Positions 19,729 to 41,713 of a stretch of DNA of 64,000 nucleotides are shown one piece after another (within the stretch, counting starts at the first letter, position 1; the number at the start of each line of letters is the position of its first letter). The notes beneath the pieces were generated by a model. That model was not told the origin of the DNA, searched no databases, and was given only the letters and a program-made list of their open reading frames with translations. Origin of the DNA: Candidatus Methanomethylicia archaeon (GTDB lineage: Archaea; Thermoproteota; Methanomethylicia; Nezhaarchaeales; B40-G2); NCBI GenBank assembly GCA_029259155.1, contig JAPDJI010000001.1:1-64000 (forward strand). Direction: 5' to 3'. The position numbers were made by a program, and so were the translations under genes.

Positions 19729-21133
19729 AGAAGCCTGCGGAGTCATAGGAGTCTTATCAGCCAAGAAGGATCATGTCGCCTCTGATATATATAGAGGGCT
19801 CTACGCCCTGCAACATAGAGGTCAGGAAAGCGCAGGTATCTATATATGTGGCTCTTCACCCATACAGGGCTTCAAGGGATTGGGCTTTGTTCATGAAGCG
19901 CTAAGCGGTAAAGCCGAGAATCTTGAAGGATGGTGTGGAGTAGGTCACGTAAGGTATTCCACTACCGCTAATTCTACAATTGAAGAAGCTCAACCTTTAC
20001 TTTATGAATGTGCTGGTAGACGTTTTGCCTTAGCCTTTAATGGTACTATATCTAACTACTTGGAGCTTAAAGAGAAGCTCGGCAAGGAAGGTTTCTCCTT
20101 CAAGACGATGACTGACACTGAAGTCTTAGCTGCTCTCCTATCGCTTAACTTGGCTGAGACAGGGGACTACGTGGGAGCCTTAAGACGATGTATGGAACAG
20201 CTTGAAGGCGCGTACTCGCTGGTCATCCTCGATGAAGGAGGAGAACTATATGTAGCGCGTGATCCTTTAGGGTTTAAACCGCTATGTTTAGGCTTAAACC
20301 ATGACCGTGAACTCTACGTGGTGGCTTCTGAGAGCTGCGCTTTAGACACTTTGAACGCTCAGTTATTGATGCATGTTGAGCCAGGCATGGTAATGAGAGT
20401 ATATGATGGAGGCTACGAAGCTAAAAGGATGGTTACGTCAAGACGCCACGCACGCTGCATGTTTGAGTACGTATACTTCTCTCGTCCCGACTCGGAGTTT
20501 GATGGGATATGGATCTACGAAGCTAGACTTAAGATAGGCAGAGAGCTCGGTAAACGTTTTCCTGCTGAAGCTGACGTGGTCGTGCCTGTACCTGATTCGG
20601 GTAGGACAGCAGCCATAGGGTTCTCAGAAGCTACGGGAATACCGTTGGTGGAGGGTTTAATGAAGAACCGTTACGTGGGAAGGATTTTCATAATGCCTGG
20701 TGAACGTAACCGAAATGAAATGGTCAGAGTCAAGTTGAACCCTATAAAGCCATTGATTAAAGGTAAACGCGTGGTATTGATTGATGACTCCATCGTCAGG
20801 GGGACCACCATGAAGTACATAGTAAGTCTTCTACGTGGAGCGGGAGCAGAGGAGGTTCACGTTAGGATCAGCTGTCCACCTATAATAGCTGGATGTTACA
20901 TGGGTATTGATTTTCCTACTCGACGAGAACTAGTGGCTTCATCACATAGCATAGAGGAGATAAGGGACATGTTAGGAGCTAACTCGCTTCACTATAATTC
21001 CATAGAAGGCTTAGTTAAAGGAATAGGCTTGCCTAGAAACGAGTTATGCTTAGCTTGTCTTACCGGGGAGTATCCTATCAAGGCTGATGCCTCGCTTTTG
21101 GAGAAGGCTATAGGTGAGATGAGGAGGCCTTAA
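19715..21133 (+). CDS. purF: Amidophosphoribosyltransferase with propeptide and catalytic Cys
   Basis: REA-CGVIG, LQHRGQESAG, GHVRYST, CMFEYVYFSRPDS, LIDDSIVRGTT, CLAC. Confidence 0.95.
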   Translation: MKVVREACGVIGVLSAKKDHVASDIYRGLYALQHRGQESAGIYICGSSPIQGFKGLGFVHEALSGKAENLEGWCGVGHVRYSTTANSTIEEAQPLLYECAGRRFALAFNGTISNYLELKEKLGKEGFSFKTMTDTEVLAALLSLNLAETGDYVGALRRCMEQLEGAYSLVILDEGGELYVARDPLGFKPLCLGLNHDRELYVVASESCALDTLNAQLLMHVEPGMVMRVYDGGYEAKRMVTSRRHARCMFEYVYFSRPDSEFDGIWIYEARLKIGRELGKRFPAEADVVVPVPDSGRTAAIGFSEATGIPLVEGLMKNRYVGRIFIMPGERNRNEMVRVKLNPIKPLIKGKRVVLIDDSIVRGTTMKYIVSLLRGAGAEEVHVRISCPPIIAGCYMGIDFPTRRELVASSHSIEEIRDMLGANSLHYNSIEGLVKGIGLPRNELCLACLTGEYPIKADASLLEKAIGEMRRP

Positions 21134-36991: not shown

Positions 36992-37637
36992 GCTTTTTCA
37001 GAACCTCCAAGAGCTTAAAAGGTGAGTCTATAACATAGTCTACCCATGGACTCACTACCTCTTGATTAGAGACGAGGACGGTTATCATACCAAGCTCCTT
37101 AGCTGGCTTAACCTCATCTTCCACCCTATCACCCATATAGACGGTTTCCTTCGCTGGTACGCCTAACAACTCTAAGCCTCTCAGGTACGGTTTGGGGCTA
37201 GTCTTAGGTTCTACTTCGCTACTAGTGATTAAAGCATCTACGGCATCGAGAGGTATCTTGAGCGCTCCCATGGTTCCTAGCGCGTGAGGTCTACCCGAGT
37301 TGGTTATGATAGCTACCTTATAGCCCATGCTACGTAACTGGCGTAGAAACTCAGCGATTTTAGGATCTGGTTTAAGCAGCTCTGTATACCTGAGCCTTTT
37401 AGATAACTCATCATAGAAGTAGTGTCGTGATACCCCTACATACTCGATGCTCCTCGTCAAGGTTACGCATATTTTCCTAGCTTCTGTCAATCGGTGCTGA
37501 GCTTCTTCAACGCTCACACCGAGTTTTTCCGATACGATCTCCAGCGTCAGCCTCTTAATCTCAGCCTCATACTTAGGACATCTATAGAGCGTGCCGTCGA
37601 GATCGGTTAGTATAGCTTTAATCTTAGTCAACTTCAT
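36978..37637 (-). CDS. HAD-superfamily hydrolase
   Basis: DLDGTL, ITNS, PK, MGDR...EV.PAKELGM. Confidence 0.9.
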   Translation of the reverse strand: MKLTKIKAILTDLDGTLYRCPKYEAEIKRLTLEIVSEKLGVSVEEAQHRLTEARKICVTLTRSIEYVGVSRHYFYDELSKRLRYTELLKPDPKIAEFLRQLRSMGYKVAIITNSGRPHALGTMGALKIPLDAVDALITSSEVEPKTSPKPYLRGLELLGVPAKETVYMGDRVEDEVKPAKELGMITVLVSNQEVVSPWVDYVIDSPFKLLEVLKKLEAC

Positions 37638-37698
37638 CCCTTTCCTTGTTCGAGCAACTTAGACTTATAACTTTCAGCTAGCTATTAGTCTAGCGTGA

Positions 37699-38136
37699 AT
37701 GGGAATGAAGCTTAAGACTGTTTTCTTAGCGGCAGGGGTTTTCATAGCAGCCTTGGGGGTAGGTGCCTTATATTACGCTCTTGAGGTGTATCCATACCTT
37801 GTGGCTGGCTATGGAGGCTCTGAGCCCTTTACGTTGAGTACGGTTAACGGCTATACTTTCATACTCCCTGTTTGGACCGGGTCTAAGGTAAATGTTCAAG
37901 TCTACGCTAACAACACGGTTCAGGTGTGGGTCGAAGGTGAGTTGATGGGAGAGGGGAATCAGGTTTTCTTTGACCTAGAGCCTGAGAAGCAACATCTAAT
38001 TATGGTTACTTCCGAGGTTCCCGTCGAGGGGAGAATTTCCTTCAGACAGCAGCCTCCGGAGGTGCTCTTGCTGGTAGCAGGTTTTATGGTTGTATTAGGG
38101 GTGTCTATTTTCATTGCCTCCTTTAAGCTACGCTAG
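37699..38136 (+). CDS. Hypothetical membrane protein (N- and C-terminal TM helices)
   Basis: 145-aa ORF with two terminal hydrophobic helices. Confidence 0.65.
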   Translation: MGMKLKTVFLAAGVFIAALGVGALYYALEVYPYLVAGYGGSEPFTLSTVNGYTFILPVWTGSKVNVQVYANNTVQVWVEGELMGEGNQVFFDLEPEKQHLIMVTSEVPVEGRISFRQQPPEVLLLVAGFMVVLGVSIFIASFKLR

Positions 38137-38189
38137 CCTTCCTGTAGCCTCAGTTTTATAGCATACTCCTCCTATCCACTTTTAGGGGC

Positions 38190-38977
38190 TTGAACTTGTA
38201 TAATCCATTAGAATATGCTGAAAGGCTGAAGCAACTTGTAGTTAGAGGTATGGCAAGGAAGTATTATAGAGTAGCTAGAGGCGGTAGATGGTACGGCGGT
38301 AAGTAGGCTTACGCCTACCCGCATTCGCTACCGCAGACTGTGTAGGCTGTCCTCTAAAATGCGTGTTCTGCTGGAGTAACGTGTCTCGAGACTCTCCTGA
38401 AAGCGTGGGGCGTTTCTATACGCCATCACAGGTGTTTAAGGCTCTCGATGCTATTGCAAGTAAACGAGGCTACACTCAGCTTAGGGTGAGTGGTAATGAA
38501 CCTACTCTCGGCAGGGACCACCTTCTAAGCCTCTTAGACCTCGTTGAGGAGGCAGGGCGCTACACCTTCATTTTGGAAACTAACGGCATCCTAATAGGCC
38601 ATGACTCATCTTATGCACGCGATCTAGCCAAGTACAGGTGTATTCATGTTAGGGTGAGCTTGAAAGGAGCTTCACGTGAAGAGTTTACCAGGCTTACTGG
38701 AGCTATACCTGAAGCCTTTGACCTTCAATTAAAGGCACTTGAAAACCTCCTCAAGGAAGGTGTACCGTGTCATCCAGCTGTCATGTTATCCTTTAGCTCT
38801 AAGGACTCGCTCAAAGCGCTAACATCAAAGTTAAGGTCCATCGACCCCACCCTCGTCGAGGAACTTGAAGAAGAATACGTGTTCATGTACCCTCACGTAG
38901 CTGAGAGGCTTAAGAAGGCTGGAATACAACCTAAGATAGCCTACAGCCCCAACAGGATACCTGAAGAGCTTATATGA
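38190..38977 (+). CDS. Radical SAM protein interrupted by an intron (exon 1 38190-38301, exon 2 38325-38977; 254 aa spliced)
   Basis: Exon 1 reads ...RKYYRVARGGRWYGG; exon 2 reads ATADCVGCPLKCVFCWS...SGNEPT...LETNG...VRVSLKG. Joining gives GG-I-ATADC and an intact CxxxCxxC. Start is TTG 38190 or TTG 38196. Confidence 0.88.
38302..38324 (+). other. 23-nt archaeal bulge-helix-bulge intron in a protein-coding gene
   Basis: Central helix GCGG(38296-99)/CCGC(38319-22); 3-nt bulges TAA(38300-02) and ATT(38323-25); intron stem GTAGGC/GCCTAC with a TTAC loop. Cuts after the second nucleotide of each bulge restore the frame. Confidence 0.88.
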
Positions 38978-38986
38978 ACAAAATAC

Positions 38987-39004
38987 CCGCTAAGAGGTTA
39001 GCGG
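38987..39004. terminator. Hairpin between convergent genes
   Basis: CCGCTAA-GAGG-TTAGCGG, a 7-bp perfect stem 10 nt after the radical SAM stop codon. Confidence 0.4.
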
Positions 39005-39061
39005 AAAGGTTTACGGTTTGCATCAAAGCTACGTAAGCTTCGCGTGGCAGCTTGCCTATAT

Positions 39062-39775
39062 TCATCCTTCTAGACCCATTAACCTAACCGCATTTCCCCC
39101 AAGCACTCTAGCCTTGTCCTCCTCGCTTAGTTGAAGAGAAAGCAGCTTCTCAACCTCATGCTTCATGTAGCCAAAAGGTATGTCAGAGCCGAACAATAAG
39201 CGATGGGAGCCAAGTTCCTCTAAAAACCTCTTTACGGTGCTGCTCGGAGCCAGCGAGGTGTCGAAGTAGACATTATCTTCATGCTTAAACTTCTCTAGGA
39301 AAGCTAGCGGAGAACCTCCGAGCATACCTAAATGAGGTATCACGAGCGTCACCTCTGGGAATAAGTTCACGAACCTAACCGTAAACTCAAGCTCCTCCTC
39401 AAAGATGACGGGTAAGCGTAACTTGGCAACTGTCCTTGCGAATCCCTCAAGCCTAGGGTCAGAGAGCACGCTGTAATTAGATTTTGTATCCGATATCCCT
39501 CTGACCCAATGCCACTTAACGCCTCGGAAACGTGGATTGCTAGGTGGCGTTAAGTCGTCTGGGGCGTAGTAAAACGGTATGAAACTACTATGGTGTTCGG
39601 CTTGCCCCAATACCCACTCAACTATGGATGGATCTGACACGGCTGTGGAAGGGAATGGAAACACTACGGCCCTATCTACCCCAGCCTCCGACATTTGCCT
39701 TAAAATCTCCTCTGAGGTTATAGAGATCCCGAGCACCAGCGACGGCCCCAAATGTGTATGGAAGTCTATAATCAC
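39062..39775 (-). CDS. Amidohydrolase family (TIM barrel) protein
   Basis: IIDFHTH, GVKWH, PHLG, VYFDTS, LLFGSDIPF. Confidence 0.88.
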   Translation of the reverse strand: MIIDFHTHLGPSLVLGISITSEEILRQMSEAGVDRAVVFPFPSTAVSDPSIVEWVLGQAEHHSSFIPFYYAPDDLTPPSNPRFRGVKWHWVRGISDTKSNYSVLSDPRLEGFARTVAKLRLPVIFEEELEFTVRFVNLFPEVTLVIPHLGMLGGSPLAFLEKFKHEDNVYFDTSLAPSSTVKRFLEELGSHRLLFGSDIPFGYMKHEVEKLLSLQLSEEDKARVLGGNAVRLMGLEG

Positions 39776-41640: not shown

Positions 41641-41713
41641 AGCCGGGTGGTGTAGCGGCCAAGCATCACGGGCTTTGGCCCCGTGGACGGCGGTTCAAAT
41701 CCGCCCCCGGCTA
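41641..41713 (+). tRNA. tRNA-Gln(UUG), intronless, CCA not encoded
   Basis: Acceptor stem AGCCGGG/CCCGGCT (A1-U72), anticodon arm ACGGG-CTTTGGC-CCCGT, T arm GGCGG-TTCAAAT-CCGCC; TTTAAA TATA box at ~41610. Confidence 0.95.

Follow-up and report, generated by a model that had tools for sequence, protein, structure and literature searches.

A bulge-helix-bulge intron predicted in the mRNA of an archaeal radical SAM enzyme, and four further mRNA introns in the same genome

How a complete radical SAM enzyme could be made from two reading frames that do not meet is the question raised by a gene at positions 38190-38977 (plus strand) of a 64,000-nucleotide (nt) stretch of DNA from a Candidatus Methanomethylicia archaeon (contig JAPDJI010000001.1, positions 1 to 64,000, hereafter the window). 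The gene is interrupted at 38302-38324 by 23 nt that fold as a 3-4-3 bulge-helix-bulge (BHB). The interrupting segment is very probably a BHB intron that would be removed from the mRNA by splicing, and the gene is probably not dead, judging from the sequence comparisons described here.

The frame that begins at TTG 38190 reads ...KYYRVARGGRWYGGK (...RGGRWYGGK) and closes at the stop codon TAG 38304-38306, and ATADCVGCPLKCVFCW is read on from 38327 in another frame than exon 1. This second frame is open from 38306 (...ATADCVGCPLKCVFCWSN...) to a stop at 38975-38977. A full cluster-binding protein can be obtained only by joining both frames, because the first start codon of the second, GTG 38363, lies inside the CxxxCxxC motif. 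The initial annotation of the stretch had placed a BHB at the frame break, and every element it named is present in the window at the positions given below. The splicing endonuclease cuts after the second base of each bulge, and this rule agrees internally across the five intron-bearing genes of the genome that are dealt with here. Applied to the radical SAM gene, it removes exactly 38302-38324, restores the frame and creates an Ile codon (A from exon 1, TC from exon 2) to give GG-I-ATADC, and the predicted excision proved to be the sole register that reproduces the sequence of the homologs. A shift by one base loses the conserved Ile, which becomes Phe at -1 and Asn at +1 when the sequence is read in these registers. 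For comparison we used 41 related genomes, among which G000 is the source genome and G001, G002 and G003 are the other genomes of its family. The parts of the locus are as follows; "three sequences" refers to an alignment of interrupted versions of the gene, and X5 and X6 are sequencing runs, both described further on.

38155-38160 (+): TTTATA, a possible archaeal TATA box inferred from the sequence, about 30-35 nt upstream of the first start codon
38190-38301 (+): exon 1, whose last base, A38301, opens the Ile codon; 72-74% identity to residues 3-41 of the G001 ortholog
38290-38295 (+): outer (exon-exon) helix, 5' strand GGTACG; helix 1, with 83% of cells paired in the three sequences
38296-38299 (+): central helix of 4 base pairs (bp), 5' strand GCGG, exonic (Gly-Gly codons); 100% of cells paired in the three sequences, with one compensatory pair
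38300-38302 (+): 5' bulge TAA, with the predicted cut at 38301/38302
38302-38324 (+): BHB intron of 23 nt, the predicted excised segment; also in DNA contigs of runs X5 and X6
38303-38318 (+): inner intron hairpin GTAGGC-TTAC-GCCTAC (stem 38303-08 / 38313-18, loop TTAC), from sequence, fold and BHB scan
38304-38306 (+): in-frame stop TAG closing the unspliced exon-1 frame, from frame translation
38319-38322 (+): central helix, 3' strand CCGC, intronic, from BHB scan and three-sequence alignment
38323-38325 (+): 3' bulge ATT, with the predicted cut at 38324/38325
38325-38977 (+): exon 2, in which TC completes the Ile codon, followed by ATADC... and the stop TGA 38975-38977; Pfam Radical_SAM, 77-79% identity to the G001 ortholog
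38326-38332 (+): outer helix, 3' strand CGCTACC, pairing with 38290-95, C38328 unpaired
38348-38371 (+): CxxxCxxC cluster motif CPLKCVFC, linked to a start codon only after splicing

Exon 1 starts at TTG 38190 or at TTG 38196, the latter agreeing with homologs that start MYNPLEY, and the possible promoter element was assigned from the archaeal TATA box consensus. The outer helix (38290-38295 / 38326-38332) is partly made of Trp-Tyr codons pairing with Ala-Thr codons. The coding sequence therefore supplies half of the splice structure, which may explain the recurrence of introns at the Ile codon. No further copy of the 23-nt intron is found in the genome.

The fold was examined with a scanner for strict 3-4-3 BHBs (inner helix ≥3 pairs, outer helix ≥2, no more than one G-U allowed in the central helix, length 12-150), which matches the intron at i=38296, j=38319 and L=23 with 2 outer and 6 inner contiguous pairs and no G-U. 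The flanking helices of an hBHBh' arrangement are present, the inner one having 6 bp and the outer one 2 contiguous bp, one unpaired C and then 4 bp. The minimum free energy (MFE) fold computed with ViennaRNA has -29.5 kcal/mol (z=-2.97, 2/200 shuffles equally good) and contains the central helix, the 5' bulge and the inner stem of the BHB. None of the Rfam 15 covariance models, including those of group I and group II introns, matches the plus strand of 37600-39200, and the sole Rfam match in that interval, to a miRNA model, lies on the opposite strand and below threshold.

Contiguity of the homologs at GG-I-A, which the initial annotation had expected, is borne out by both proteins and loci. 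Among 19 homologs fetched, WYGG-I-A(T/S)AD is contiguous in 16/16 full-length proteins (250-255 amino acids); of the remaining three, two are truncated and one carries a false N-terminus. The 41 related genomes yielded 30 radical SAM loci, 27 of them contiguous, two interrupted (G000 and G004) and one without a recognisable motif. In G004, which belongs to the same order and another family, a 26-nt insert (L022 1479-1504) sits at the same codon as the intron of G000, and its BHB consists of the central helix GUGG/CCGC, the bulges AAA and UAU and the inner stem GCGG/CCGC. Metagenome contigs scanned with a degenerate pattern gave four matches, namely L034, which is an identical copy of the G004 version, L032, and the chance matches L031 and L033. 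The insert of L032 (1803-1832) is 30 nt long and in frame but contains TAA and TAG; it lies again at the same codon, in a host protein only 50-55% identical, with the central helix GUGG/CUAC and the bulges AAA and AAU. All three versions (G000, L022 and L032) are strict BHBs that would be spliced to GG-I-ATADC, and their inner stems are unrelated. Pattern scans of genome contigs gave no match and then one chance match, and they did not return G004's own matching locus, so absence there is no evidence.

When the three sequences are aligned, they share a common structure of 14 pairs in which 90.5% of the 42 cells are paired, compared with 24-62% after displacing the partners by 1-3 columns. Pairing is 100% in the central helix, and in 4 of the 14 pairs both sides have changed. 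In a shuffle test of this alignment 15/500 reach the observed values, three sequences having little statistical power, though they point clearly one way. The intron of the radical SAM gene may have been gained twice or lost twice, and both histories fit its distribution.

The presence of the 23 nt in DNA, on which the initial annotation also depended, is supported by contigs of two independent runs from different studies that span the intron (X5, 38267-38700; X6, 38077-38700) with 0 gaps and no difference inside the intron. Within the gene, seven strain differences separate these contigs from the window, four synonymous and three conservative, two of the latter towards residues common in homologs. 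One synonymous change, T>C at 38329 in both runs, removes one outer-helix pair. Uninterrupted relatives occur in these samples as well; their contigs part from the window exactly at 38296-38299 and go on with GG-I-A-T-A codons. For run X1 the word share is 0.92 with 0 aligned contigs, and run X2 gave two 61-nt pieces from uninterrupted relatives. There is no second copy of the subfamily in G000, where other matches are at most 30% identical.

Public gene calls are truncated or mis-started in the way that had been foreseen. P0003 (198 amino acids, 99% identical) starts after all three Cys, and P0023 (230 amino acids) starts inside the intron frame, with the peptide read through the intron. P0122 (190 amino acids, 73% identical) is a truncated protein that may be a further interrupted copy.

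The radical SAM gene is a real case that was understated when it was described by itself, since the same genome also carries strict BHB introns in cbf5, aIF5B, uS5 and aEF2. A search for cbf5 showed that gene to be split, and two censuses followed. In the first, open reading frames (ORFs) of G001, almost the whole genome, were aligned to G000, and in the second the BHB-spliced junction peptides of both genomes were compared. The first gave 58 co-linear split alignments, 11 rows of which had some frame-compatible strict BHB; of these, the radical SAM junction alone also reproduced the sequence of G001. The other BHB rows were paralog alignments or involved loss of homologous residues, and pairs with 8-60 extra nt and no BHB were mostly judged on inspection to be antisense or low-complexity frames. 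The reverse test, for introns specific to G001, found none among 52 pairs. The second census started from 3187 candidates of G000 and 3233 of G001 and led, after sorting by inspection, to the four genes; the other pairs were adjacent genes (e.g. uL13, uL22/uS3, Rpo10/enolase) or non-coding frames, and a looser follow-up of 289 junction-peptide candidates added nothing. This census covers strict BHBs in genes shared with G001, and five mRNA introns are thus a minimum. The four introns are located as follows.

G000:C2:28850-28872 = L039 1797-1819 (-): cbf5 intron, 23 nt, strict BHB; outer helix GGGA/UCCU, central helix CCCU/GGGG, bulges AGA and UUA
G000:C2:13183-13211 = L145 1783-1811 (-): intron of aIF5B (IF-2 family GTPase), 29 nt, strict BHB, between ...VGAM and TQHIG...
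G000:C13:32002-32029 = L146 302-329 (+): intron of ribosomal protein uS5, 28 nt, strict BHB, between ...KQTD and AGE...
G000:C13:34951-34982 = L146 3251-3282 (-): aEF2 intron, 32 nt, BHB, between ...EIEQ and LRQM...

The intron of cbf5 is the classical cbf5 intron, its predicted splice recreating the Asp codon of GTL-D-PKV, and G001 has a 19-nt intron at the same site. Those of aIF5B, uS5 and aEF2 are textbook BHBs with long inner stems, and each of these genes has one match in G000. The exon pieces follow one another in Pfam profiles: in aEF2 they cover GTP_EFTU 1-51 and then 53-187, in aIF5B they cover GTP_EFTU 4-30 and then 61-184 plus the IF-2 domains, and exon 2 of uS5 starts at position 17 of Ribosomal_S5.

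For each gene, the distribution of the intron was counted in the same 41 genomes, at no more than 30 loci, with the scanner relaxed to an inner helix of at least 2 pairs, at most two G-U, and an outer helix of at least 2 pairs for aEF2 and at least 1 for aIF5B, uS5 and cbf5. The aEF2 gene is interrupted (29-32 nt) at 4 of 28 analysable loci, all strict BHBs, which are all four genomes of family f1, and it is contiguous at 24. The aIF5B gene is interrupted (27-33 nt) at 20/30 loci, comprising all 15 of the order's three families and five genomes of one genus in another family; 17 of these are strict BHBs and 3 near-BHBs, 10 loci are contiguous, and the inner stems have undergone many compensatory changes across relatives. 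For uS5, 14 of 30 loci are interrupted (22-34 nt), all by strict BHBs, and 16 are contiguous; the central helix shows a double compensatory change from ACGG/CCGU to ACAG/CUGU. For cbf5, 26/30 loci are interrupted, of which 14 pass the scanner and 12 have a mismatch adjoining the 3' bulge, and four are contiguous. The spliced junctions of all four genes equal the contiguous sequence of intron-less relatives. The mRNAs of the core translation genes with a single match appear to be spliced, because the same interruption across many genomes, with abundant covariation, is hard to explain otherwise, and splicing is the natural reading of the radical SAM mRNA as well because the core translation mRNAs of the same genome appear to be spliced.

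Two side observations came from the comparison of G000 with G001. At G000:C14 ~20954-21099 (-) the alignment of a G001 ORF is split in two, G000 having some 19 additional nt around a strong hairpin. No strict BHB is found there; a relaxed intron, a frameshift or a segment that has diverged could account for it. Many other co-linear split alignments differ by -2, -1 or +1 nt and look like plain frameshifts, assembly errors or antisense-frame alignments.

Several observations weigh against splicing of the radical SAM mRNA. The first group concerns the fold: only two contiguous pairs of the outer helix adjoin the 3' bulge, and the MFE structure pairs the flanks otherwise, with a 3' bulge of 2 nt instead of the canonical 3 nt, so that the canonical 3-4-3 form would be a near-optimal alternative according to the folding model, not the MFE itself. 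A second BHB, which overlaps the first (38293-38327, 35 nt, outer 6, inner 3, one G-U), would restore the frame too, at the cost of YGGIA, and may represent either an alternative splicing product or something that the same helices produce by chance. The second group concerns chance. BHB-like motifs are frequent, with 41,947 matches by the scanner on both strands of the 1.55-Mb genome and a rate of about 1e-4 per site-and-length for any match, and because they are so common by chance the motif alone proves nothing. The scan for BHBs at apparent frameshifts across the genome, which had been suggested as a check, did not discriminate in the form of an ORF-only filter, which returned 2536 BHB-bridged candidates compared with 2423-2500 with shifted cut sites, without enrichment; it was the homology-based census that yielded the four further mRNA introns. 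Lastly, G001, G002 and G003 of the same family have the radical SAM gene without the intron, which can thus be dispensed with and may have inserted recently and disabled the gene; the source genome is a metagenome assembly (94% complete, 2.6% contamination), and the matched public runs are on record as DNA only, splicing being deduced from sequence. What goes beyond chance is the position exactly at the frame break, the register that gives Ile, and the recurrence with different sequences in two other lineages.

The main alternative is a recent pseudogene, in which a 23-nt insertion disabled the gene and the BHB-like fold is a coincidence or an unprocessed relic. The uninterrupted state of G001-G003, the commonness of loose BHB motifs and the DNA-only nature of the runs all favor it, but the motif occupies the sole register that restores both Ile and frame, and a BHB of this quality would be expected at a given site and length with a probability of about 5.6e-6. 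In addition, BHBs of other sequence occupy this codon in two further lineages, the exons show no other damage and share 72-79% identity with those of G001, the strain differences are mostly synonymous or conservative, and single-copy core translation genes of the genome are interrupted likewise. Taken together, we consider a pseudogene improbable. The second alternative keeps splicing and assigns it to the overlapping 35-nt BHB, or to both registers, giving an isoform that lacks YGGIA. Its outer helix of 6 pairs is used by the MFE fold and its removal would restore the frame, yet it has an inner helix of only 3 pairs and a G-U in the central helix, its product loses residues that are near-invariant in homologs, and no equivalent frame-restoring match exists in G004 or L032; we regard this as very improbable. 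Still less credible is ribosomal bypass or frameshifting over 23-24 nt with no RNA splicing. The stop codon and the stable hairpin that follow the Gly-Gly codons superficially resemble a hop site, but no matching take-off and landing codons are seen in the sequence, any hop would insert Phe (TTC) in place of the conserved Ile, and the BHB geometry and the covariation in three lineages and five genes would be left unexplained. That the 23 nt are an assembly or sequencing artefact, as might be suspected of a metagenome assembly, is close to negligible given the gapless contigs of two other runs from different studies, the 99%-identical truncated gene call P0003 in the protein collection, and the recovery of the G004 version from a genome as well as from a metagenome contig (L022 = L034).

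Excision of the 23-nt intron, the reading that we prefer, would yield a product of about 253 amino acids by joining the N-terminal 37 residues to the domain with the Cys motif. Exon 2 matches Pfam Radical_SAM (PF04055) with 74 bits (cut-off 29.5) and contains CPLKCVFC. No NCBIfam equivalog reaches its cut-off for this protein (best 44-50 bits vs 400-490), no close solved structure was found (best 6y1x, E=3.8e-6), and Atlas gives only generic names for the family. The family is widespread in archaea, its nearest named homologs coming, by source labels, from Nezhaarchaeota/Nezhaarchaeales, Methanomethylicota, Hadarchaeales, Bathyarchaeia and others. The label "MoaA" given by some sources looks like over-annotation, and the enzyme belongs to a conserved, uncharacterised family. 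RaSEA, the radical SAM enzyme of archaeosine (PMC11298593), is one candidate identity that was considered for it. It is speculation, by analogy with the four other intron hosts, that it might act on RNA or translation.

The enzymes presumed to carry out the splicing are encoded in G000, which has two genes of the EndA family (PF01974; 105.7 and 72.7 bits) and one RtcB gene (PF01139; 593 bits), all above cut-off. The two EndA-family sequences, in the regions of G000:C1:74192-74446 and C6:37461-37718, suggest an endonuclease of the hetero-oligomeric type. In 14/42 tRNA genes of the genome aragorn flagged an intron, in two cases of implausible length. The window itself contains a single tRNA gene, tRNA-Gln(UUG) at 41641-41713, for which no intron is reported.

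From these sequences we infer that the radical SAM mRNA is cleaved and ligated. The pre-mRNA would fold so that exonic GCGG pairs with intronic CCGC, leaving a 3-nt bulge on each strand; the EndA-family endonuclease would cleave each bulge behind its second base; and ligation of the exons by RtcB would form the Ile codon from A and TC, giving GG-I-ATADC. Most simply, the intron is a tolerated selfish or neutral insertion that has to be removed. The initial annotation had held that the tRNA-splicing machinery gates expression of the enzyme, and this stands in the sense that splicing would be required for the full-length protein; a regulatory role of the intron is speculation. A bolder possibility, which we think rather unlikely, is that in this archaeal class the mRNAs of cbf5, aIF5B, uS5, aEF2 and, sporadically, the radical SAM enzyme form an EndA/RtcB-dependent regulon that ties the translation apparatus to tRNA-maturation capacity. 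Such a regulon would be an archaeal counterpart of the IRE1/RtcB splicing of HAC1/XBP1, with ongoing gain of introns at sites where the coding sequence gives half a BHB, and RNA or the translation machinery would then be the probable target of the radical SAM enzyme, as with the four other hosts.

No matter whether the introns have a role, archaeal mRNA splicing looks broader than the textbook case of cbf5, in that one genome has five such introns, two of which, in aIF5B and uS5, are shared by entire families or orders of relatives. Confirmation by RNA data would make mRNA splicing in archaea a recurrent phenomenon and not a one-gene curiosity, and the splicing endonuclease would then be needed for the production of EF-2, aIF5B and uS5 in these lineages. 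A practical drawback is that gene callers truncate or mis-start such proteins (P0003 and P0023 being examples). Intron host genes commonly serve as phylogenomic and completeness markers, and miscalled marker genes could distort annotation and trees for this group.

In the literature searched, the claim that no intron had been reported in this radical SAM family, and that the well-documented cases are those of cbf5, holds. Yokobori et al. (2009; PMC2738675), in their account of archaeal protein-gene introns, state that splicing had been confirmed for no gene but cbf5 and that putative introns had been predicted in other genes (Peng 2004; Brugger 2006). Schwarz et al. (2020; PMC7714728), where they summarize earlier reports, name only the cbf5 mRNA intron besides those of tRNA and rRNA, and add a BHB intron in the 5'-untranslated region of HVO_1309 of Haloferax volcanii. 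On this point a structural paper of 2025 (PMC12397907) still cites the cbf5 papers only, and a 2026 review of non-canonical splicing (PMC13149111), which mentions HAC1/XBP1 splicing, speaks in its treatment of archaea of tRNA splicing only. The full texts searched, among which subscription journals are mostly not included, hold no report of BHB introns in radical SAM, aIF5B, uS5 or aEF2 genes.

Of the known systems, the closest is the cbf5 intron of Crenarchaeota (Watanabe 2002; Yoshinari 2006; Yokobori 2009, PMC2738675), for which, in the portions of this work that bear on the comparison, lineage-specific gain and loss, misled gene callers and a link to the hetero-oligomeric endonuclease are described, likewise features of the present case. 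The radical SAM intron differs from it in its host, which is not of the TruB family, in its sporadic occurrence (2/29 loci with the motif and one metagenome contig) and in the creation of an Ile codon. The HVO_1309 intron, as far as its description in PMC7714728 bears on this, is similarly an mRNA substrate of the tRNA splicing endonuclease; it lies in an untranslated leader and was demonstrated in vivo and in vitro, whereas the radical SAM intron lies in a coding region and is predicted. The BHB introns of archaeal tRNA and rRNA share the 3-4-3 motif and the presumed enzymes, but the substrate here is an mRNA, whose excision must keep the reading frame. In eukaryotes, HAC1 and XBP1 mRNAs are cut by IRE1 and ligated by RtcB or Trl1, with a proven regulatory role. 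Besides its regulation, that system differs in its nuclease; the two would share independence of the spliceosome, removal of a small intron with flanking stem-loops from an mRNA, joining by a tRNA ligase, and a change of frame that leads to the active protein.

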